From contig JARIGO010000022.1 of assembly GCA_029288805.1 (NCBI GenBank), forward strand, positions 30,754 to 94,753: DNA of 64,000 nt, in the 5' to 3' direction. This document shows positions 12,359 to 58,999 of the stretch, one piece after another; the stretch's first letter is position 1; each line of letters begins with the position of its first letter. The stretch comes from Candidatus Nomurabacteria bacterium (GTDB lineage: Bacteria; Patescibacteriota; Minisyncoccia; Phycocordibacterales; UBA9973). The position numbers and the translations under genes were made by a program. The notes beneath the pieces are model-generated. The model ran no database searches and had not been told where the DNA came from. It was given only the letters and a program-made list of their open reading frames with translations.

Positions 12359-14164
12359 CTATGACATCAAGATCTGATTCTTAATTAGTTCTTTATAGTC
12401 TTCAGATGTTTTTTCTAATTCCTTATGTGTTCCCTGCGCTACAACTTTTCCTTTTGCTACTACAAAGATAATGTCTGCATCCATCACGGTTGAAAGACGG
12501 TGCGCGATGATAATAGTGGTTCTTCCTTGGGCACTGCGGTTTATGGCATCATGAATCAGCTTTTCATTGATTGAGTCCAGCGCAGATGTGGCTTCATCAA
12601 AGATCAAAATCTTCGGATCTTTAATCAATGCGCGTGCAATACCAATACGCTGGCGCTCACCGCCTGAAACCTTAATTCCCCCTTCACCAATAACAGTTTC
12701 CAAACCGTGATCCTTAAGCTTGGCAATAAAATCAGTAAGTGAGGCATCCTCAACAGCTTTTTGAAGCTTCTCTTCTGGAACTTCTGCATCTGCGGGTAAG
12801 CCGAACAAAATGTTTTCCTTAATACTGCGATCAAACAGGTCAATCTTTTGTTCAACATTTCCGATACGAGAACGCAACCAGTGCAGATTCATTTCCTTAA
12901 GCTGAACGTCATCAATCAAAATTTCTCCCTCGGTAGGATCATAAAAGCGACGCATGAGATTTACGATAGTGGATTTTCCTGAACCGGATACGCCGACAAA
13001 ACCAATTTTTGCACCGGCTGGTATGACAAAACTGACATTAGAAATAGTATGCTCTTCTTTCTTATCATCGGTTTCAGATTCTTCCTCTTCTTCTTTTGCG
13101 GACTTACGGTACGGATATGCAAAACTAACATTTTTAAATTCAATTTTTCCTTGTAGGTCATCAATTATTATCCCATTTTCATTCGTATCAATATCCGGCT
13201 TGATGGTAAAGAGGTCAAACATTTTTCTAATTTCAACAATCTGAAAGAGCATTTGGCGTTGGGTACTCATAATATTCTGCAGATTTCCAAAAATCGCCCC
13301 TGTCCATGAAAAGAGCGTAACGAACATGCCCGCTGAATGCTTTCCAATAAGAATCAGATACACGCCAAGACCAAGGGTTGCGTACTGACCAACAACTATC
13401 AGTATCCTGTGCAGGTAATAAGGTCTGAGGTAGCCCAGCCATCCGGAAGTGGCAAACTCGGTAACATCTTCAGCAAAGACATTGAAGTCATCAACCGTCT
13501 TAGCCTCCTGTCCTTCAGCGATAATTAACGTAGAGTTACGATATAACTCAGAAGATAACTTTGACTGCGACTGGTATTTCTTTCGAATCTGCTCTGCCTT
13601 TGGAAAGAATTTTTTATTACGACGAAGAGACACCCAGATATATACAGCCACAAAGACGGTTGCCACCGCAGCTACTTTCCAGTCAAAAATTGCCAATACT
13701 ACCAATGTAACCAGGGATTGCAAGCCTGCAGGAAGAACATTATAGAGAATCGCATACATCAAATTCTCAAGAGAACTTTGTCCCTTGCTTATGACACTTT
13801 GCTTTACGCCGGAGTGCTCATTTATATGCTGACCGATTGAATAAGCAAAATTCTTATGCAAAGAATCGACGGAAAAAGCCTTTTCAATATGGTCATCAAG
13901 GTGTTTTAGTTCAGTAGCTTCTTTTAACCACCATAGTCCGACTGACTGAAAAAGAGAAACAACAAAAGAGATGCCCAGGAATATAAATGTGAGGCGAATA
14001 TTGCCATGAATGACAGCATCTACGCCTTTACCAAACAAATATGGCGCTACAGTTCCGATTAACTGGATAAGAACAAGCATTCCTGTGATCACGAAAAGGT
14101 ATTTTCGAAATGGGCGAAAAAAGGCAAATACCCGTTTTAAAAATGTTATGTTTTCATTTTGCAT
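12359..14164 (-). CDS. ABC transporter, fused permease/ATP-binding subunit (MsbA-like exporter) with an acidic insert
   Basis: 601 aa. TM domain followed by an NBD with LSGGERQRIGIARALIKDPKILIFDEATSALD. Carries an unusual EEEEESETDDKKEE insert before the NBD beta-strand. Confidence 0.9.
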   Translation of the reverse strand: MQNENITFLKRVFAFFRPFRKYLFVITGMLVLIQLIGTVAPYLFGKGVDAVIHGNIRLTFIFLGISFVVSLFQSVGLWWLKEATELKHLDDHIEKAFSVDSLHKNFAYSIGQHINEHSGVKQSVISKGQSSLENLMYAILYNVLPAGLQSLVTLVVLAIFDWKVAAVATVFVAVYIWVSLRRNKKFFPKAEQIRKKYQSQSKLSSELYRNSTLIIAEGQEAKTVDDFNVFAEDVTEFATSGWLGYLRPYYLHRILIVVGQYATLGLGVYLILIGKHSAGMFVTLFSWTGAIFGNLQNIMSTQRQMLFQIVEIRKMFDLFTIKPDIDTNENGIIIDDLQGKIEFKNVSFAYPYRKSAKEEEEESETDDKKEEHTISNVSFVIPAGAKIGFVGVSGSGKSTIVNLMRRFYDPTEGEILIDDVQLKEMNLHWLRSRIGNVEQKIDLFDRSIKENILFGLPADAEVPEEKLQKAVEDASLTDFIAKLKDHGLETVIGEGGIKVSGGERQRIGIARALIKDPKILIFDEATSALDSINEKLIHDAINRSAQGRTTIIIAHRLSTVMDADIIFVVAKGKVVAQGTHKELEKTSEDYKELIKNQILMS

Positions 14165-14168
14165 ACTA

Positions 14169-15138
14169 TTACTGTGTTAGCCCTATCGCTTCATACACGT
14201 CAAAGATTTTTTTCATGGCGATGTCGTTGGCTTTCATGGCGCCTTCGACGAGGATTTGCTGAACGAGTTTTGGGTTGGCAGCAAAGTAGTCACGACGAGC
14301 ACGCATTGGCGTTACGAAGTCGATGATATCCTTGATGAGCATTTTTTTTGCATCACCATAGCCAAGACCTTTGGTATATTGGGCTTTTAATTCTTCTGAG
14401 CCATTAAAGAGCTTGTGAATCTGATAGATAACGAGTTCATCAGGATTCTTTTCCTCATCCTTACCACGAGAGTCAGTAGTGATACCCATGACTGCTTTCG
14501 TGATTTCTTCATCAGTACCAAATAACGGGATGATGTTGCCATAACTTTTTGACATCTTTTGCCCGTCAGTACCCGGAATGACTTCCACTTCTTCCAAGAT
14601 AAGTTCCTTCGGTAGCTTGAATAGTTCTCCGTACTGATTGTTGAACTTACCAGCGATATCACGTGCGTACTCAACATGCTGCTTCTGATCCTTTCCTACA
14701 GGAACAACATCAGTGTTATAAAGCAAAATATCTGATGCCATCAGTACAGGATAATCAAATGTACCGACATTTACTTCTGCTTTCTTTGCCTCAGCATCTT
14801 TGAAGGCATGGGCACGCATAAGATATGGCACTGTTACGAGATTGTTGAATACCCACGTGAGGTTAGCATGAGCCAAAACATCAGACTGTTTGAACAATGT
14901 CACTTTTTCTGGATCAAGACCTGCACCCAAGTAGTCAAGAATAAGATCATGAGTATCTTGCATAAGCTTGTCCTTTGCAGGAAGGCCGGTCAGCGCATGC
15001 AGGTTCGCAATGAAGATAAAACTATCGTGAGTATCCTGTAAATCAACGAATTGTTTCAATGCGCCGAAGTAATTACCGAAATGCAGACGACCAGTTGGCT
15101 TCATGCCAGAAAATAGACGAGGTTTTGTGGATTCCATG
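14169..15138 (-). CDS. trpS: tryptophanyl-tRNA synthetase
   Basis: Class I HIGH-like GRLHFGNYFG, VGKDQKQHVEYARDIA and KMSKS (GQKMSKSYGN). Start moved to the MESTKPRLFSG methionine, which is preceded by TATGAT-N6. Confidence 0.9.
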
Positions 15139-25303: not shown

Positions 25304-25849
25304 ATGGAACAGAGAAAACCCAAACCAAACTATTCAAAGAGAATATTGGCTCTTTTGGGTAACAAACCTGCTATTTCTATAGCCGATTTAGAGGAAAATC
25401 TTATATCCTCGCTCACGCTATCTAATGCTAAGCATGCGCTAAAGCGCTCGCTTAGAGGCCTAGAAGAGGCAGGATTGATCGAAACCCACCATTCTGGACA
25501 GCAGACCTATTCCCGCCTGACGCGTGAAGGTAAACGCAAGGCATACAGCATTAGTCTGGATCATGAAAATACCGTTTTTAACCCGGCATGGGACGGCAAA
25601 TGGCGCATTGTCCTGCTCGACCTTTCCGAAGACCGCAAATCAGAACGCGAAGGCCTCCGTTATCTCCTCAAAAAAGCCGGCTTTATGTTGCTCAAAAATT
25701 CTGTTTGGATCTCCCCGTATCCGTTCGAGCATCTTTTTATGAACATCAAAAAAGACCTCGGGCTAACAACAGAACTAATGATCTTTGTGACAGATACATT
25801 AGACCCGGAAACAGAAGCAGCCTTTACTGAATTATTAAATCGTCTGTAA
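25304..25849 (+). CDS. compact PaaX-like winged-helix transcriptional regulator
   Basis: 181 aa. The N-terminal wHTH (RILALLGNKPAISIADL...LEEAGLIETHHSGQQTYSRLTREGKRKA) and the C-terminal WDGKWRIVLLDLSEDRKSEREGLRYLLKKAGFMLLKNSVWISPYP match the PaaX N- and C-domains. Confidence 0.5.
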   Translation: MEQRKPKPNYSKRILALLGNKPAISIADLEENLISSLTLSNAKHALKRSLRGLEEAGLIETHHSGQQTYSRLTREGKRKAYSISLDHENTVFNPAWDGKWRIVLLDLSEDRKSEREGLRYLLKKAGFMLLKNSVWISPYPFEHLFMNIKKDLGLTTELMIFVTDTLDPETEAAFTELLNRL

Positions 25850-39836: not shown

Positions 39837-40736
39837 TTATTTTAAAAACTTTTGAATGTTTTGTTCATGCTGACTAAAGGTAGACGCATAGTGTATGCCG
39901 CCAGATGAATCGTGTAAATAGTAGAGGTATGGCGAAGCAACCGGATTCAATGCCGCCGTGATAGCCGCAAGACCTGGATTGGAAATTGGAGCCGGAGGCA
40001 AGCCTGCCTTTTGGTACGTGATAGGAGCAGCATCCACCTGCAGACGAATGCCGTCATTGATACGCTTCCATAGAATGCCTGAGATAATGCCTCTGTCATT
40101 ATCTCCATGTGCTTCCTTTTCTATGATAGATGCCATGATGATAATCTGTTCTTCGCTATGGCCAGACTGAGCAATGGTAGAGCGCAATGGCGCCACTTTC
40201 CTTTCATATGTTTGCTGCATGGTTGCAATAACTTCCTGCGGCGTTGGCGTGGGGTAAAAGCCGTACGTATCAGGAAAGAGCTTGCCTTGATCGTCTTTTG
40301 TCAGCATGAGAAACGTTGCGGTATCAAATGAAGGAAAAACCTCCTTCAGGTGATCTGACATTTGTCCGGTGGTAAACCCTTCAGGAAATGTCACCTTTGT
40401 CCTATTAATGCCAAAATTCTTACCCGAGAATCGCAATGCGATATCAAGAGTCGACAACGGTTGGTCAAAGACATACTCACCTTCACTGATACGGGTATCG
40501 CCACCAAAGACATGCATAAAGATTTCAAACACGCGTGCGGAGTGAATGACACCGTCATGCTGCATTTCCACCGCAATATTAGGAACTGTTTCCCCTGACG
40601 TAACAACGATATGGTACGGCGCTGGAAATTTTGCCGGCGCTGAAATGAATGCCTTGTACATCGCTACTACGAAAACAACACCAAGAAATATTGTTAACAA
40701 TGCCTGCGTTACAAAACCACGTTGAAGGGACTGCAT
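39837..40736 (-). CDS. mltG: endolytic murein transglycosylase MltG/YceG family
   Basis: N-terminal TM. The C-terminal ...YQKAGLPPAPISNPGLAAITAALNP...YLYYLHD is the YceG signature. Start set at MQSLQRG to avoid a 52-nt overlap with the upstream gene. Confidence 0.8.
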   Translation of the reverse strand: MQSLQRGFVTQALLTIFLGVVFVVAMYKAFISAPAKFPAPYHIVVTSGETVPNIAVEMQHDGVIHSARVFEIFMHVFGGDTRISEGEYVFDQPLSTLDIALRFSGKNFGINRTKVTFPEGFTTGQMSDHLKEVFPSFDTATFLMLTKDDQGKLFPDTYGFYPTPTPQEVIATMQQTYERKVAPLRSTIAQSGHSEEQIIIMASIIEKEAHGDNDRGIISGILWKRINDGIRLQVDAAPITYQKAGLPPAPISNPGLAAITAALNPVASPYLYYLHDSSGGIHYASTFSQHEQNIQKFLK

Positions 40737-40737
40737 A

Positions 40738-42006
40738 CTATATAGGAAGATTTGATGGAGGCTGCGCCTTAGTTGCCTCAATACGCACAAAGCTTGAAGT
40801 CTCTGCTACTCGACCCGGTAGGTGGAACAATGTTGCCAACTCTTCGGTTGAAAGAATGTATGCCTTGCCTCCGTTGATTTCAGGATAGGTAGTGTATGTC
40901 TTTGGATTTTTAAGATCAAACCCTCCATAGAAAAATGCGCGCGCCTTGTATGCTCCCAACAAGTCTTTCTTCTTTTTGATAATCTTGCTGCCAGTCAGAT
41001 CCTGCCATGGGAAATCAAATGCGGTAGCACCGTCAGGCTTGAAACCGTTATAGTCAGAAGCCCCGTACTGACGCACCATGCCAGTCACTCCTGCAATGCG
41101 ATTGGCATCAAACTTGTCTTTCTGAGTGATATATATAGTACGAATACCCGCATCAAAACCGATCTTGCTTGCATTGCGCTCAATGGCTTCAATGACCATT
41201 TGTTCACCCTTCGTGGCACGACGCGTTGCAATGGTTTTTCCCTCTTTGTCTTTTTCCGTCAGGCTGGCATTAAAATCTCTGATGACCTGCTTAACCTTGT
41301 CGGTCCACGCCTTGTTTGACTCTTCTTCACCCTTGCTGTTCTTAACAGTAAACCGATTGGTGGCTCCACGTACCAAAATTTGAAACCAGATCTGTTCTCC
41401 CACGCCAATGGAGCCCATGAATTCTAGCATCGGCGTAATAGGATCGATACGCTGCTCTTCATCCAATGAGCCGACGGCGCGATCAAGTCCGTATTCAATA
41501 TATGTCTTGATCGGATACACTTCCTCTTTGTTGGTAAGCGCAAAGTTACAACCCCACAACTGGATGGGACCATCCTTGGTAAAGTCCGGCACTGACTCGG
41601 TGTAATCCTCGACTTCTGTCACCTCTGCTTGTGGATACTGGGCGTAAACTTGTGATTGGATAATGCTCTTGAACTTTACTGACGTACGAATATAAAAATG
41701 AATGGATCCTTCAATGGAAACGATTTCAAGCGAGAACCAGTTGCGCACCGCTCCGCCCCAGTATTTTTGCAGCCAGTTGCCGTGTCCTCCTGTTTGGTAC
41801 AAGGAGTTCAGCACAAGTTCCATAGCCAATGGTGATTTGAAAACTTCCTTTGGCGGCTTAACTTCAAGCAGAGTCCACTTTATGGAACGTAAAAAAAGCG
41901 TCTGAATGTAACTCATCCAGAGATGCCACGCCAAGTATGAAAGAAGGGGTATGGCAATGATCAGCTCGATACATTGAACAATGAACGAGGAGCTCGGGTT
42001 TTGCAT
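40738..42006 (-). CDS. hypothetical N-terminally membrane-anchored protein of unknown function
   Basis: 422 aa. One N-terminal TM, then a mixed alpha/beta domain with no recognisable catalytic motif. Lies immediately downstream of the pilin-like gene. Confidence 0.45.
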   Translation of the reverse strand: MQNPSSSFIVQCIELIIAIPLLSYLAWHLWMSYIQTLFLRSIKWTLLEVKPPKEVFKSPLAMELVLNSLYQTGGHGNWLQKYWGGAVRNWFSLEIVSIEGSIHFYIRTSVKFKSIIQSQVYAQYPQAEVTEVEDYTESVPDFTKDGPIQLWGCNFALTNKEEVYPIKTYIEYGLDRAVGSLDEEQRIDPITPMLEFMGSIGVGEQIWFQILVRGATNRFTVKNSKGEEESNKAWTDKVKQVIRDFNASLTEKDKEGKTIATRRATKGEQMVIEAIERNASKIGFDAGIRTIYITQKDKFDANRIAGVTGMVRQYGASDYNGFKPDGATAFDFPWQDLTGSKIIKKKKDLLGAYKARAFFYGGFDLKNPKTYTTYPEINGGKAYILSTEELATLFHLPGRVAETSSFVRIEATKAQPPSNLPI

Positions 42007-42029: not shown

Positions 42030-42587
42030 TTAAAAAGTGGTACCACTTCCACCGGAAACAGTTGTTTGATTGGTGATAACCGTAGTGTTACCGGGCAAAA
42101 GCTGAAGTTGAATGCGAGCACTGAGGGACGTACCGTTTGTCGCGGCAGGACTGCTAATCACGAGGTACGCAGTGGTGCTGTGCGCCACGCCCTGAAGCGG
42201 AATGACAGAAGAAAATGTGTCATCGCCAAAGAAACTCTTGTTGATTGGAATAGTGGTGTAGGCAGATAGCACTGAACCTGTGCTGTCTACAACGTATGCA
42301 TTGAGTGCATCAGGCACGGCACTGACGTTAAGACATTGTGCAACATATCCGTTGACCGTAACGGCATTTGAAATCTGCTCTTTTTTTGTTGGAAGGCTCA
42401 CGATAAGACCGCAGCCAGGGTTGGCAGTAACAACCTTTGTTGTTTTGGTAGCGGAACCTTTTGCAGGACCGATGACGGAACCAAGTGGAGTGTTAGTAAT
42501 GGTTGTTATTAATCCAATAGCCAAGACAATGGCCAAGATTATTTCAAGTGCTCCCCATCCGCCTCCTCCAGCTGGTGCATCCGCCAT
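42030..42587 (-). CDS. type IV pilin-like protein (class III signal: G|WGALE with Glu+5)
   Basis: The N-terminus MADAPAGGGG|WGALEIILAIVLAIGLITTI has a Gly-rich leader, Glu at +5 and a roughly 20-aa hydrophobic helix. Two Cys could form a disulfide loop. The C-terminus is Thr/Ser-rich. Confidence 0.4.
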   Translation of the reverse strand: MADAPAGGGGWGALEIILAIVLAIGLITTITNTPLGSVIGPAKGSATKTTKVVTANPGCGLIVSLPTKKEQISNAVTVNGYVAQCLNVSAVPDALNAYVVDSTGSVLSAYTTIPINKSFFGDDTFSSVIPLQGVAHSTTAYLVISSPAATNGTSLSARIQLQLLPGNTTVITNQTTVSGGSGTTF

Positions 42588-42590
42588 ATA

Positions 42591-43625
42591 TTATTTCTTT
42601 GCAACCGTATAGGTGCCGTTATCGAGCTTGGTAAAGTATTTTGCGTTCTGAAGATTTACAAGAATTGTATTCTTCTTGAGGAAACGTTCCTTAAGTACGC
42701 GATCAACAACTTCTTCCTTTGTCATTGGGCCTTCCTTAACCAAAATTTCCTTGATGACGTCACGAACCACACCTGGTTTGTAACCCCATTCAGCCAAGGC
42801 ATAGTAGCCGCGACCAACAAGCACGAAGCGAGGGTCTTTGATCAATTCATTGTGAGTAGTTGCAATGTGAGTCTTGCGACCGAATGTATCAACGATAGCC
42901 TTTGCCACTTCACGGAAGTGCATTGGAGAGCCATGCTTACGCATCATGAGGAATGCATAGTCCTTGATACCGCGAGTCTTGATATTTTGTGACTGAGCAG
43001 GACCCCATTCGCCCAGGGGGTTAACGCCGATCTTCTTTGAGATATTCAACCAACGACGAGCAATTTCCTCGTTTTTGTACTGAGCAGCTACGCCTTTCAA
43101 TTCATCAAGAAAACGAGTTACGAGGTCATCCTGACTGAGCAATTCCTTGTCATCAAGACTCTTGTATACGCGATGAAGGGCACTGTGAATAACTTCTGAC
43201 AATTCCTCATCAACAGTCCAGCGAGTTTGGAAGTGGTCGTCTTCCTTGAGCTTTTTGAACTCGTCACCGAGTACCATATAAAAACGAATGTGGTTTTGCA
43301 CTGACTTATCCTTAGACACATAAGAAAGGAAGTCGTCTTCATGGACCATGGCGCCCATAGCTTCTACCAAGCCTTTGAGTTCAGTAAATACCTTGTGTTC
43401 AGCCTTAAACGCATCGCTTTTGCGAATGGCAGCAAGAGCCGCGTTTTCGATTTGACGAACGCGTTCACGAGTAATGCCATATTTCTTTCCGATTGCCTCA
43501 AGCGTCTTTGAATCCGCATTGTCTTCAAGACCATAGCGGTTGACGATGATGTCATGCGCGCGGTCCTGCAAATTTGAGAGCAGGCGCTTGCTGACTTGTT
43601 TAGGTTTAAAACTGATAGTTGCCAT
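42591..43625 (-). CDS. two-HTH protein: N-terminal sigma-70 region-4-like domain fused to a C-terminal HARE-HTH winged helix
   Basis: Residues about 14-68, RAHDIIVNRYGLEDNADSKTLEAIGKKYGITRERVRQIENAALAAIRK, follow the sigma70_r4 consensus. Residues about 225-300, GSPMHFREVAKAIV...IATTHNELIKDPRFVLVGRGYYALAEWGY, follow the HARE-HTH consensus found in RNAP delta. Confidence 0.5.
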   Translation of the reverse strand: MATISFKPKQVSKRLLSNLQDRAHDIIVNRYGLEDNADSKTLEAIGKKYGITRERVRQIENAALAAIRKSDAFKAEHKVFTELKGLVEAMGAMVHEDDFLSYVSKDKSVQNHIRFYMVLGDEFKKLKEDDHFQTRWTVDEELSEVIHSALHRVYKSLDDKELLSQDDLVTRFLDELKGVAAQYKNEEIARRWLNISKKIGVNPLGEWGPAQSQNIKTRGIKDYAFLMMRKHGSPMHFREVAKAIVDTFGRKTHIATTHNELIKDPRFVLVGRGYYALAEWGYKPGVVRDVIKEILVKEGPMTKEEVVDRVLKERFLKKNTILVNLQNAKYFTKLDNGTYTVAKK

Positions 43626-43714
43626 GTGTCTTTATTGTTATTTTTATATAATTATCTCTATACTTTATCATGGATATAAAAAAAGTCAAACTCTTGTCAA
43701 GTATCGCTTTGGGA

Positions 43715-46001: not shown

Positions 46002-47021
46002 CTACCGCTTTGCAAGAATGGAACGCTTATAGTCATCAAGGTGTCCAAGCAAGATACCAGTACCTTTCGCAACGCAGTACAGAGGATCATCAGACAGGCG
46101 AACCTTTACGCCGGTTTGCTCCTGAATGAGTTCAGCCAAATTTTTCAATGAAGACGTTCCTCCGGTCATAACGATACCGTAGTCGATAATATCTGATGCA
46201 AGCTCAGGTGGAGTATTTTCCAATACAGTCTTGATAGCCTTGATAATAATTTCCAATTCATACTGAATGGCCTTTACCAATTCATTGGTAGTGATAGTAA
46301 GCGTTTTTGGGAGACCGGTAACAATATCTCGTCCTTTGACCTCTCCGCTAACGTCGGGGCTAACAGGCAATGCGGAACACAATGTCTTCTTTACTTCTTC
46401 TGCTGTTTGGTCACCAATAGCGACATTGTACGTATGACGAATGTAGTCGATGATGGCTTGGTCAAACTTATTACCAGCGCATTTCACTGATGTTGAAGCG
46501 ATGATACCGCCAAGTGAAATTACGGCCACGTCAGTAGTACCTCCACCAATATCGATGACCATGCATCCGCGAGGTTCATTAATAGCAATACCTGCACCAA
46601 GCGCTGCAAGGATTGGTTCCTTTACAATGATGGCAGTACGCGCGCCAGCTTTCATGGTTGCCTCAATGACAGCGCGACGCTCTGTGGAAGTGATGCCAAC
46701 AGGTACAGACACAAGTACATCAGGCTTGAAGAGCGATGTTCGACCCAAGGCTTTGTTGATGAAGTGATGCAGCATGGCATACGTCACGGTGTAGTTGGCG
46801 ATGGCGCCATCCTGCATAGGGCGGTGTACAGAAACAGAGTCAGGATTCTTCCCCAACATGTCCTTGGCATCGTTACCGATAGCCTCAATAGTGCGAGTGG
46901 TACGGTTCACGGCCACCACGGTCGGCTCATTGAGCACAATGCCCTCACCTGCCATAAATACCAAGGTATTGGCAGTACCCAGGTCGATACCAAGCTTCTT
47001 TTTTCCAGGAAGTTTCCACAT
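46002..47021 (-). CDS. mreB: rod shape-determining actin homolog MreB
   Basis: KKLGIDLGTANTLVF and the full MreB signature set. 339 aa. Confidence 0.95.
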   Translation of the reverse strand: MWKLPGKKKLGIDLGTANTLVFMAGEGIVLNEPTVVAVNRTTRTIEAIGNDAKDMLGKNPDSVSVHRPMQDGAIANYTVTYAMLHHFINKALGRTSLFKPDVLVSVPVGITSTERRAVIEATMKAGARTAIIVKEPILAALGAGIAINEPRGCMVIDIGGGTTDVAVISLGGIIASTSVKCAGNKFDQAIIDYIRHTYNVAIGDQTAEEVKKTLCSALPVSPDVSGEVKGRDIVTGLPKTLTITTNELVKAIQYELEIIIKAIKTVLENTPPELASDIIDYGIVMTGGTSSLKNLAELIQEQTGVKVRLSDDPLYCVAKGTGILLGHLDDYKRSILAKR

Positions 47022-48926
47022 ATGAATGACTATAGTATAGTGGCGTTAATGTTTATTGCAACAGTCATTCCTATCAGCAAAGGCATTCCTTTTGACACTC
47101 TGAGTTATTTCAGCGGTGAGCAGCTTGCTGTCGGTACCATTGTGTCTGTGCCATTTGGCAAGCAAAAGATCAATGCCATCGTTGCAGAGTGCCAAAATCT
47201 GTCCGAAGCCAAGACTGCCGTCAAGCAAGCCTCCTTTTCCATGAAAAAAATTTCCGCGACGGTCGGTCACGTGCCACTGCTTGGGGCCGTCATCGACGGT
47301 TTGCAGGACACTGCAGCCCGAACACTGACCCCGCTCGGCGCCATTGCGGGAGCTGTCATGCCGCAAAGTCTTTTTGAATACGTTACGCCCGAAAAAATAG
47401 TAACCGCGTCAGACGCGGCTTCTCTTGAAAGTGAAAAGCAGAAGTTTACCGAGACAAGTGTTGCCGGAACTATCGATACTCGTGCTGACTACTACAAGCG
47501 ATTGATTCGCACGAGCTTTGCCGCAAAGAAAAGCATTCTCTTTATTGCGCCAACCATTAAAAACTTGGAACAATGGAAGACAACATTACAAAAAGGCATC
47601 CCGAAGCATGTAGTCAGCGTGCATAGCAAGACTACAAAAAAGGAATTGCGCAGCGCGTTTGCATTGATTAAGCAAAGTGACCGGCCGTTGATCATTTTTG
47701 CAACACCAGGATTCAGCGTCCTGCCTCGACATGATATTGGCTCCATCATAGTGGAAGACGAGAGCAGCAGTCTCTTCAAAACCAGCGACCGTTTCAAAAC
47801 TGATCTTCGCATTTTCTTGGGAGCATTTGCCAAGGCTGCAGAAATGCAGCTGTACTGGGGAGACACCATTCCTCGCTTCGAGACATTGGAGCGTACCAAG
47901 AACACGCACATGCCTCGCACCTTTATTCCTGACAAGCTGACCGTCGTGCCAGTAGAGCCATACCGCACCGTACTGCCAACAGAAGTGGTAGAGATCATTC
48001 GCCATGCTGAAAAGAAAAAGAAACGCCTCTATATATATGCCAACAGAAAAGGCGTGGCGCCACTGTCTCGCTGTAGCGATTGCGGCACCATCGTGACCTG
48101 TGAAGTCTGCGGCTTGCCGATGGTATTGAGAAATAGACGAAATGCTGAAGGGCAAGAGGAACGGTACTTCGTGTGCTCGCACTGTACTGCCACCTTACCA
48201 GCGACACACACCTGTAGTTATTGCGGCAGTTGGAATATCACGCCGATATCAATCGGTACGGAAAGCATCCGAGATGCTGTTGCCGCATTGGTAGGAACAG
48301 ACGTCATTACCACTATCGACGATGACCTGACACCAGACGGCACGACCATCGCTTCACTACTCGCGCAAAGTGAAAAGCAAAAGTTCACCATCATCATTGG
48401 CACTATCAAGGTATTGCCATTTCTCAAAAATATTAACTACTGTCTCTTTCCGTTTTTTGACCGACTGCTTTCTACACCATCACTCTATACGACAGAAAAT
48501 ACACTTCGCTTAGTAATGGAGTGCAATGAAAAAGCCGAAGACGGCGTGCTGCTCTTCACACGTCAGGCAGACTTTCCATTGATCAAGCAGTTGGAAACGC
48601 AAAAGCTCAACGCCATCATTCATGATGAACTGCAACTGCGCGAAGAAATCGGCTATCCACCGTACGGCAGCATCATAAAAATCAGCCTGACTATTCCTGA
48701 GGGATACAGACTCGCTGTCATAGAAAAAGTGCAACGCTTTGTAGAAAATATGGAAGCGACAATGATGCCACCACGCCGCATCAGCGCCGGCAGCATGAAA
48801 GTCCTCCTGACCTGGATTATCAAAACTACGGCCAACTACATAGAAGAGGAAGGTCCAACTCTCGGCGCATTTCTTTCCACCCTGCACTTCCCTTACCTAA
48901 TCGAAGAAAACCCTGAAAGACTATAA
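47022..48926 (+). CDS. primosomal protein N' (PriA) homolog with degenerate helicase motifs
   Basis: 3'-DNA-binding-domain-like N-terminus (VSVPFGKQKINAIVAEC) and the PriA Cys-rich zinc-binding region (CSDCG..CEVCG...CSHC...CSYCG). Where Walker A GxGKT should be, the sequence reads VAGTIDTRADYYKRL. The start codon abuts the mreB start codon. Confidence 0.65.
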   Translation: MNDYSIVALMFIATVIPISKGIPFDTLSYFSGEQLAVGTIVSVPFGKQKINAIVAECQNLSEAKTAVKQASFSMKKISATVGHVPLLGAVIDGLQDTAARTLTPLGAIAGAVMPQSLFEYVTPEKIVTASDAASLESEKQKFTETSVAGTIDTRADYYKRLIRTSFAAKKSILFIAPTIKNLEQWKTTLQKGIPKHVVSVHSKTTKKELRSAFALIKQSDRPLIIFATPGFSVLPRHDIGSIIVEDESSSLFKTSDRFKTDLRIFLGAFAKAAEMQLYWGDTIPRFETLERTKNTHMPRTFIPDKLTVVPVEPYRTVLPTEVVEIIRHAEKKKKRLYIYANRKGVAPLSRCSDCGTIVTCEVCGLPMVLRNRRNAEGQEERYFVCSHCTATLPATHTCSYCGSWNITPISIGTESIRDAVAALVGTDVITTIDDDLTPDGTTIASLLAQSEKQKFTIIIGTIKVLPFLKNINYCLFPFFDRLLSTPSLYTTENTLRLVMECNEKAEDGVLLFTRQADFPLIKQLETQKLNAIIHDELQLREEIGYPPYGSIIKISLTIPEGYRLAVIEKVQRFVENMEATMMPPRRISAGSMKVLLTWIIKTTANYIEEEGPTLGAFLSTLHFPYLIEENPERL

Positions 48927-58920: not shown

Positions 58921-58999
58921 AATATAAAAACTTTTCTTTAGTATATATCAGATTTATTGACAAGTCAATATAGTGTGTTAAAGTAAGAAAAACATTCAA

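Follow-up and report, generated by a model that had tools for sequence, protein, structure and literature searches.

What can a sigma-70 region 4 domain do in a protein that holds no other part of a sigma factor? The question is raised by a gene in a stretch of 64,000 nucleotides from a Candidatus Nomurabacteria genome, analysed as a whole and referred to below as the window. In the bacteria of the candidate phyla radiation, to our knowledge, very few regulators can be recognised, and transcription is hardly studied. An initial annotation of the gene described an unusual two-HTH protein, in which region 4 is joined by a helical linker of about 150 aa to a C-terminal HARE-HTH domain, and suggested that the free region 4 might bind -35 elements or the beta-flap.

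The ORF is real. It occupies positions 42591..43625 on the minus strand, running from an ATG to a stop codon at 42591-42593, and its 344-aa product is identical to an entry (P0001) of a public protein collection. We call this product S4-HARE, for a sigma region 4 (sigma4) followed by four winged helices. All features described below lie on the same strand.

Domain architecture

Both domains recognized in the initial annotation score above their curated Pfam cut-offs. Sigma70_r4 (PF04545) matches residues 15-69 at the start of the protein with E=1.1e-12 and 47.6 bits (cut-off 24.1), and HARE-HTH (PF05066) matches residues 220-280, in two stretches, with E=3.8e-11 and 43.7 bits (gathering cut-off 25.9). 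The absence of sigma regions 1-3, also remarked upon at that stage, is borne out by each of the searches. Pfam finds neither Sigma70_r2 nor Sigma70_r3; sequence searches in NCBIfam and the PDB produce matches confined to the last 60 or so residues (region 4) of RpoD, SigA and RpoS, with 41-54 bits for the NCBIfam RpoD models against cut-offs of 354-800; and when regions 2-4 of E. coli sigma-70 and B. subtilis SigA are used as tblastn queries, the region 4 of S4-HARE alone aligns, both in the window and in 80 related loci. Likewise, tblastn detects no full-length rpoD in the 64-kb window or in 80 related loci. The domain matches the region 4 of SigA in structure as well. Having no region 2 or 3, S4-HARE cannot be a sigma factor.

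We built an AlphaFold (AF2) model of S4-HARE from an alignment of 82 sequences (alignment A2) ranging from 33 to 94% identity. The model has a mean pLDDT of 93.8 and a pTM of 0.79, and includes no disordered segment and no segment with a pLDDT below 50. In this model, the sigma-70 region 4 domain (about residues 8-72; 43410..43604; pI 10.0) is followed by four winged helices. The first, wA (residues 76-139; 43209..43400), is acidic (pI 6.0), with an H-E-H-H-E-E succession of elements and a pLDDT above 90; the second, wB (residues 140-212; 42990..43208), is acidic as well (pI 5.3). The third, wC (residues 216-284; 42774..42980), corresponds to the HARE-HTH domain; it is basic (pI 9.8) and the most conserved of the winged-helix modules. 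It is followed by wD (residues 285-344; 42594..42773), a divergent second HARE-like module, basic again (pI 9.4), which has a weak Pfam match to DUF3320 at residues 285-312. The pI of the whole protein is 9.4.

Profile comparisons with hhalign link these modules to one another: wA with wB (probability 83%, E=9e-6), wB with wD (86%, E=5e-6) and the HARE domain with wD (75%, E=2.5e-5), and they show no likeness of any winged-helix module to sigma4. From the AF2 model and these profile links together, it follows that the supposed helical linker is made of two divergent HARE-like winged helices, complete with beta-strands. Nor does the protein end with the HARE-HTH, as had been proposed, since a fourth winged helix comes after it. 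Thus S4-HARE, as modelled, is a sigma region 4 with four related HARE-type winged helices, two acidic and then two basic, and the count of HTH-type modules rises from two to five.

A protein family of the Parcubacteria group

A survey of sequence collections shows that the architecture termed unusual is in fact fixed, old and common in the Parcubacteria group. A word-indexed search returned at least 8000 proteins matching S4-HARE, the best 120 of which are 329-359 aa long, align over 95% or more of the query and without exception have both Pfam domains. Named matches are called 'sigma factor-like helix-turn-helix DNA-binding protein' and come from Candidatus Paceibacterota, Nomurabacteria or the Patescibacteria group; nearly all named records belong to Patescibacteria/Parcubacteria. 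Searched exhaustively, a set of 1.84 billion cluster representatives yielded 580 clusters (50% identity) at E<=1e-30; most of the best 150 are 330-390 aa long, with matches running from end to end. S4-HARE is encoded by at least 539 species-representative genomes. The best 80 among these are Parcubacteria-group metagenome-assembled genomes (MAGs), with the exception of one 3-kb contig that is probably mis-binned. Divergent forms, about 35% identical, are present in Campbellbacteria and in a MAG labelled 'Pacearchaeota', where the neighbouring genes are plainly bacterial. On present evidence, the family is limited to bacteria of the Parcubacteria/Paceibacteria group, and the window protein belongs to this Paceibacteria Sigma70_r4 + HARE-HTH family by end-to-end homology, domain order and length (~345 aa).

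No fusion to sigma regions 2-3 was found among the longer family members. Two apparent fusions of other kinds were set aside: a 659-aa form is explained by SecF read-through, and one bearing an AAA_14 domain probably comes from a chimeric contig. A literature search found no paper on the family, nor any on DUF8128 (PF26449), the domain of its genomic neighbour described below, in relation to it. What was known already is the domain-level NCBI name and the kinds of component involved, namely sigma-region-4 HTHs and HARE winged helices, the family itself being uncharacterised. The invariant recognition helix, the tandem promoter hexamers, the pairing with DUF8128 and a level of conservation above that of RRF, RseP and MnmA, to which we now turn, are new here.

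Recognition helix

In a phmmer alignment, residues 14-69 of S4-HARE are matched to residues 546-600 of E. coli sigma-70. The recognition helix, T52 to E60 (TRERVRQIE; 43446..43472), thus corresponds to T583-E591 of sigma-70. Residues T52, R53, E54, R55, R57 and Q58, which align with T583, R584, E585, R586, R588 and Q589, are invariant in alignment A2, in spite of identities as low as 33%. The same is true of R30, T41, L42 and G46, which by residue count are R562, T572, L573 and G577 of sigma-70. No other part of the protein is as conserved as this block of recognition residues, whose mean column identity is 0.96. In sigma-70, R584, E585 and R588 set the specificity for positions -31 and -33 of the -35 element (PMC2613000). 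We infer from this correspondence that the region-4.2 HTH of S4-HARE binds TTGACA-like hexamers. The sigma-70 residues K593, R596 and K597, which contact activators, read N61, A65 and A66 in the S4-HARE sequence.

A tandem hexamer at the S4-HARE promoter

The gene has a core promoter of its own at 43662..43689, detected by a promoter scan with a score of 9/12 and an extended -10 TG. It consists of a -35 element TTGACT (43689-43684), a 16-nt spacer, the TG dinucleotide (43670-43669) and, after one base, TAAAGT (43667-43662). A second hexamer, TTGACA (43695..43700), is located 11 bp upstream of the -35 element and separated from it by AGAGT. The corresponding candidate DNA target duplex for S4-HARE is CTTGACAAGAGTTTGACTTTTT.

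Upstream of the orthologues, the core promoter keeps this layout. TTGAC occurs within 140 bp upstream of S4-HARE in 76 of 80 orthologues, as against 56 of 280 control upstream regions from the same loci, the controls being based on crude ORF calls. A second TTGAC 10-12 bp further upstream is seen at 17 of the 80 S4-HARE promoters, in 13 cases at exactly 11 bp, and at none of the 280 controls. Within the window, the pattern TTGAC-N5-7-TTGAC has a single occurrence, at the S4-HARE promoter; against a chance expectation of 0.58, this match is not significant by itself and it is its position that matters. Across 82 loci, 19 of the 24 matches to the same pattern lie no more than about 130 bp upstream of the start of S4-HARE. 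Grouped at 90% identity, the loci bearing the tandem belong to 14 of 72 clusters, and at 70% to 6 of 16, so that the tandem neither goes back to one inherited event nor is universal. Allowing one mismatch in the distal hexamer gave no signal beyond the exact matches (26 relaxed versus 18 exact occurrences, where a rough chance estimate predicts about 6 extra).

Elsewhere in the window, 11 intergenic sites fit TTGAC-N15-18-TAnnnT, which implies that this genome makes ordinary use of -35 elements. We propose the distal hexamer, which would lie on the same helix face as the -35 element and one turn upstream, as a candidate operator for the sigma4 HTH of S4-HARE. Alternatively, it could belong to a second, overlapping promoter; the sequence TATATC is found 16 nt downstream of it. 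The notion that this free region 4 reads -35 elements gains support from the invariant reading residues combined with the TTGACA/TTGACT tandem at the gene's own promoter.

Gene neighbourhood and conservation

As had been noted for this locus, S4-HARE is followed on the same strand by a gene for a 185-aa pilin-like protein (42030..42587), 3 nt after its stop codon, and then, 23 nt on, by a gene for a 422-aa membrane protein (40738..42006). Gaps this short make co-transcription of the three genes likely. The 185-aa protein is fast-evolving and lineage-restricted, being detectable in 6 of 80 loci, all closest relatives. Its N-terminus reads GGGG|WGALE-IILAIVLAIGL, and the G|WGALE motif followed by a hydrophobic helix is similar in one homologue (locus L006). 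A class III signal would have Gly at -1, Glu at +5 and a hydrophobic helix, and a motif of this kind is visible by eye; Pfam and NCBIfam give no pilin profile match, and the protein has no match at all in Pfam, NCBIfam, PADLOC or PHROG.

The 422-aa protein is the conserved downstream partner. It belongs to DUF8128 (PF26449), is a single-pass membrane protein and has a fold like that of the VirB4 N-terminal domain and EccE. It has a cytoplasmic domain and ends in a conserved C-terminal tail (…PPxNLPI). In 71 of 80 loci, a DUF8128 gene in the same orientation lies directly downstream of S4-HARE; in four of the nine others the contig ends first, so that about 93% of evaluable loci have the pair. 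The association extends to three loci where S4-HARE is only 34-35% identical and where a homologue of the 422-aa protein (27-33% identity) once more comes next. The third conserved member of the cluster is a YceG/MltG gene (39837..40790; Pfam YceG, E=2e-56), which follows DUF8128 in 67 of 80 loci. Its true start is probably downstream of 40790, and the orthologue in locus L081 has 292 aa. In two divergent lineages (L084 and L085), DUF8128 is followed by a TrwB/TraG/VirD4-like ATPase, a gene absent from the window and from the surrounding 6 kb in the 80 closer loci.

The gene on the upstream side varies: it encodes LeuRS in 38, TypA in 21 and RseP in 11 of 76 loci. RseP is encoded somewhere upstream in 24 of 80 loci. 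We considered whether its adjacency could reflect an anti-sigma cleavage circuit; the case is weak, as RseP is the immediate neighbour in 11 of 76 loci and LeuRS or TypA are commoner. In the window, all genes from mreB to alaS are housekeeping genes on the minus strand, and the window also contains murG, ftsW, mraY, scpAB, dnaB, recR, dnaK/dnaJ/grpE, rpoA, ftsA, ftsZ and several aminoacyl-tRNA synthetase genes.

S4-HARE is under unusually strong purifying selection, as shown by sequence comparison over the same genome pairs. It is more conserved than RRF in 25 of 25 comparisons, RseP in 25 of 25, MnmA in 52 of 54, DUF8128 in 68 of 68 and MltG in 67 of 67, and is on a par with MreB (5 of 10), with a mild bias in favour of S4-HARE since the 80 loci were ranked by similarity to it. 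Presence in hundreds of Parcubacteria-group species, MreB-level conservation, a housekeeping-type -35-reading helix and a VirB4-like partner in most evaluable loci make S4-HARE a likely core component of these cells.

Possible functions

S4-HARE looks like a core piece of transcription or of a DNA-membrane connection in a poorly understood radiation, and we can only infer which: the candidates are a global promoter-binding factor, an accessory subunit of RNA polymerase (RNAP) and a link between DNA and membrane. The predicted site, TTGACA-N5-TTGACT, makes the question testable in vitro with recombinant protein, for which culture of the organism is unnecessary.

We tentatively favour, as possible rather than probable, a promoter-DNA-binding and autoregulated protein that reads -35-type hexamers and works with DUF8128. 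The region-4.2 HTH would read TTGACA-like hexamers, the basic wC and wD modules would add DNA contacts, and the acidic wA and wB modules may offer a protein-binding surface. S4-HARE would head a tightly packed operon comprising its own gene, the pilin-like ORF, DUF8128 and mltG; it would probably autoregulate this operon at the consensus -35/extended -10 promoter with its second TTGACA, and may act together with the neighbouring DUF8128 membrane protein. Autoregulation and the DUF8128 partnership are suggested by promoter layout and gene order. Some observations speak against this reading: the distal hexamer is present at only about a fifth of orthologue promoters, and a protein that combines MreB-level conservation with such a strong promoter would more typically be an abundant part of the core machinery than a specific regulator.

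The latter observation fits an RNAP-bound accessory factor. Region 4, which in sigma factors normally holds the flap-tip helix in a hydrophobic groove, would dock on the beta-flap tip, competing with or replacing the region 4 of the housekeeping sigma, and/or the HARE domain would dock on beta-prime in the manner of delta, producing an abundant general modulator of initiation, anti-sigma-like or delta-like. Indeed, the region 4 of S4-HARE is of the primary-sigma type, with RpoD and SigA as its best NCBIfam and PDB matches, and the conserved -35 residues would be equally expected in a protein working on RNAP, because it is normally the beta-flap that places a free sigma region 4 on DNA. In B. 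subtilis, the HARE domain of delta binds the shelf/jaw of beta-prime (PMC7749165). However, RNAP has the beta-prime jaw/shelf on one side and the beta-flap on the opposite one, and a compact S4-HARE, as suggested by its pTM, is unlikely to span both. Furthermore, the protein lacks the acidic C-terminal tail that is the effector part of delta, is basic overall, and scores below the cut-off of the delta model TIGR04567. We regard an RNAP accessory role as unlikely.

A role away from transcription deserves some weight too, although we consider it quite unlikely. Here S4-HARE would connect DNA, as an adaptor or tether, to a membrane machine built around DUF8128, which in some lineages would include the VirD4/TraG-like ATPase, and would serve as a chromosome-membrane anchor or as a specificity factor in DNA translocation, with no regulation of transcription. 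The family-wide conservation of the S4-HARE/DUF8128 pair, the ATPase that follows DUF8128 in L084 and L085, and the pilin-like ORF and MltG gene in the window cluster all point in this direction. Yet the window and the vicinity of the 80 closer loci are devoid of such an ATPase, the flanking genes, MltG among them, have ordinary housekeeping roles, and streamlined genomes can keep a gene order without physical interaction. The invariance of the -35-reading residues, moreover, suggests recognition of the promoter type.

Elements of these readings can be joined into a stoichiometric, lineage-specific general transcription factor: S4-HARE might be a dissociable RNAP subunit that gives or duplicates sigma region 4 in trans, its availability being set by the VirB4-like DUF8128 protein, which would sequester it at the membrane. 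We think this improbable. A stricter version, in which the housekeeping sigma has no working region 4 and S4-HARE supplies it in trans, is very improbable. Sigma functions split between polypeptides have precedents in SigO-RsoA of B. subtilis and in gp55/gp33 of phage T4; the primary-sigma type of region 4 with its intact -35-reading helix would suit such an arrangement, as would the use in the window of -35/-10 promoters with 16-18 nt spacing (the 11 intergenic sites above). On the other hand, family members fused to regions 2-3 were not found, no region-2 gene adjoins S4-HARE in 85 loci, nothing was found to indicate a Parcubacteria RpoD devoid of region 4, and the prior probability is low.

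Hardly credible is a function in anti-phage defence or restriction, with the HARE-HTH as a sensor of modified DNA. HARE-HTH domains are frequent in restriction and defence proteins, according to their Pfam description, and the best NCBIfam and PADLOC matches of S4-HARE are to MzaA, a defence-associated sigma factor. This match involves region 4 only, with 54 bits against a cut-off of 800, and PADLOC and PHROG as a whole return only local region-4 matches; S4-HARE has no nuclease, methylase or ATPase domain, its neighbours have no PADLOC match, and the locus, unlike mobile defence islands, is a fixed part of the core chromosome in more than 500 species. Finally, the fear that the ORF is a mis-joined or truncated rpoD fragment, raised by the presence of region 4 as the sole part of a sigma factor, can be dismissed: length and architecture are constant in the at least 8000 proteins and 539 species genomes, a conserved promoter lies directly upstream, the upstream neighbours are LeuRS, TypA or RseP and never sigma regions 1-3, and conservation and a confident fold extend over 270 further residues.

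Relation to known systems

Among the systems closest to S4-HARE, RpoD and SigA end with region 4, whereas S4-HARE begins with it, lacks regions 1.1-3.2 and continues into four winged helices. The delta subunit of Firmicutes (RpoE) has one winged helix and displaces nucleic acids with a long polyanionic tail. S4-HARE differs from it by its four winged helices, its basic pI, its sigma4 domain and the lack of an acidic tail: the match to TIGR04567 reaches 24.2 bits for a cut-off of 42, and in the place of the long, acidic and disordered C-terminus of delta there is the basic wD module. In SigO-RsoA and gp55+gp33, sigma functions are carried by separate polypeptides, one of which acts at the beta-flap or the -35 element; S4-HARE has no region-2 partner in the loci examined.

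Operons of ECF sigma and anti-sigma factors resemble the S4-HARE locus in that the promoter carries the factor's own motif, the factor gene comes first and a gene for a single-pass membrane protein stands behind it, with RseP upstream in some lineages. S4-HARE departs from this scheme, having no region 2, a variable RseP adjacency (24/80) and a partner with the VirB4-N-terminal-domain/EccE-like fold in place of an anti-sigma domain, none of which was found in the DUF8128 protein.

A PDB sequence search with the winged-helix part of S4-HARE returned only noise, and thus no sequence-level relative among solved structures. The only whole-length likeness is to proteins with winged helices in series, namely the SelB C-terminus, RPC62 of Pol III, Dcc1/Ctf18-1-8 and UFL1/DDRGK1, none of which has a sequence relationship to S4-HARE or carries a sigma4 domain. 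These Foldseek whole-length matches are weak (TM about 0.2, best E 1.6e-4) and are all tandem winged-helix arrays. Foldseek also ranked chimeras of sigma4 and flap tip above plain sigma4 as matches to S4-HARE.

A VirD4-like ATPase beside DUF8128

In two divergent lineages, whose S4-HARE (the protein joining sigma-70 region 4 to winged-helix modules) is 34-35% identical to that of the window, the gene for the membrane protein DUF8128 is followed by one encoding a TrwB/TraG/VirD4-like ATPase (L084, 9589-11559; L085, 9373-10806). Neither the window nor any of the 80 closer loci has such an ATPase near its S4-HARE and DUF8128 genes. This gene order suggests that DUF8128 and the adjoining ATPase of L084 and L085 represent a VirB4-like protein divided between two genes.

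A few genes downstream of the trio formed by S4-HARE, DUF8128 and the ATPase, the divergent locus L084 also carries a restriction-modification cluster (12978-15104), composed of two N6_N4 methyltransferases and a BsaWI-like endonuclease.

The intervening pilin-like reading frame

Between S4-HARE and DUF8128 lies a 185-aa ORF (window 42030-42587, minus strand) whose N-terminus, as read from the sequence, is type IV pilin-like: GGGG|WGALE, with a Glu at +5 and a hydrophobic helix thereafter. Profile searches with this ORF returned no match. It evolves fast, BLAST detecting a homologue in only 6 of the 80 related loci; similar small ORFs forming one family occupy the equivalent position in about 11 loci.

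Gene calls and taxonomic labels

One public gene call of 659 aa (P0170) joins SecF to S4-HARE. Since secD-secF lies immediately upstream of S4-HARE in L084 (4143-6716), we consider this fusion probably a read-through or frameshift call rather than a genuine architecture.

Within the window, mechanical ORF starts were placed too far upstream in two cases. The PriA ORF (46764-48926, plus strand, GTG start) overlaps mreB by 258 nt and spans 720 aa, versus 623 aa for its orthologue in L081. The YceG ORF (39837-40790, minus strand, TTG start) overlaps the end of DUF8128 by 53 nt; its orthologue has 292 aa.

Two contigs appear to be MAG contigs that were given the wrong label or placed in the wrong bin. 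The family member of L085 (protein P0393) is assigned to 'Candidatus Pacearchaeota archaeon', even though the genes around it are bacterial (two MreB, a MurA-like gene, GatCA and RecG); L023, only 3 kb long, carries the label Chitinophagales.

Other features of the window

Two divergent promoter-like sites at 58940-58984 have the palindromic TTGACAAGTCAA in common, and their -35 hexamers overlap, pointing toward opposite genes. Elsewhere, a gene at 25304-25849 stands alone on the plus strand with dnaK and grpE on either side; its product, of 181 aa, contains a PaaX central Cas2-like domain (E=7e-20).
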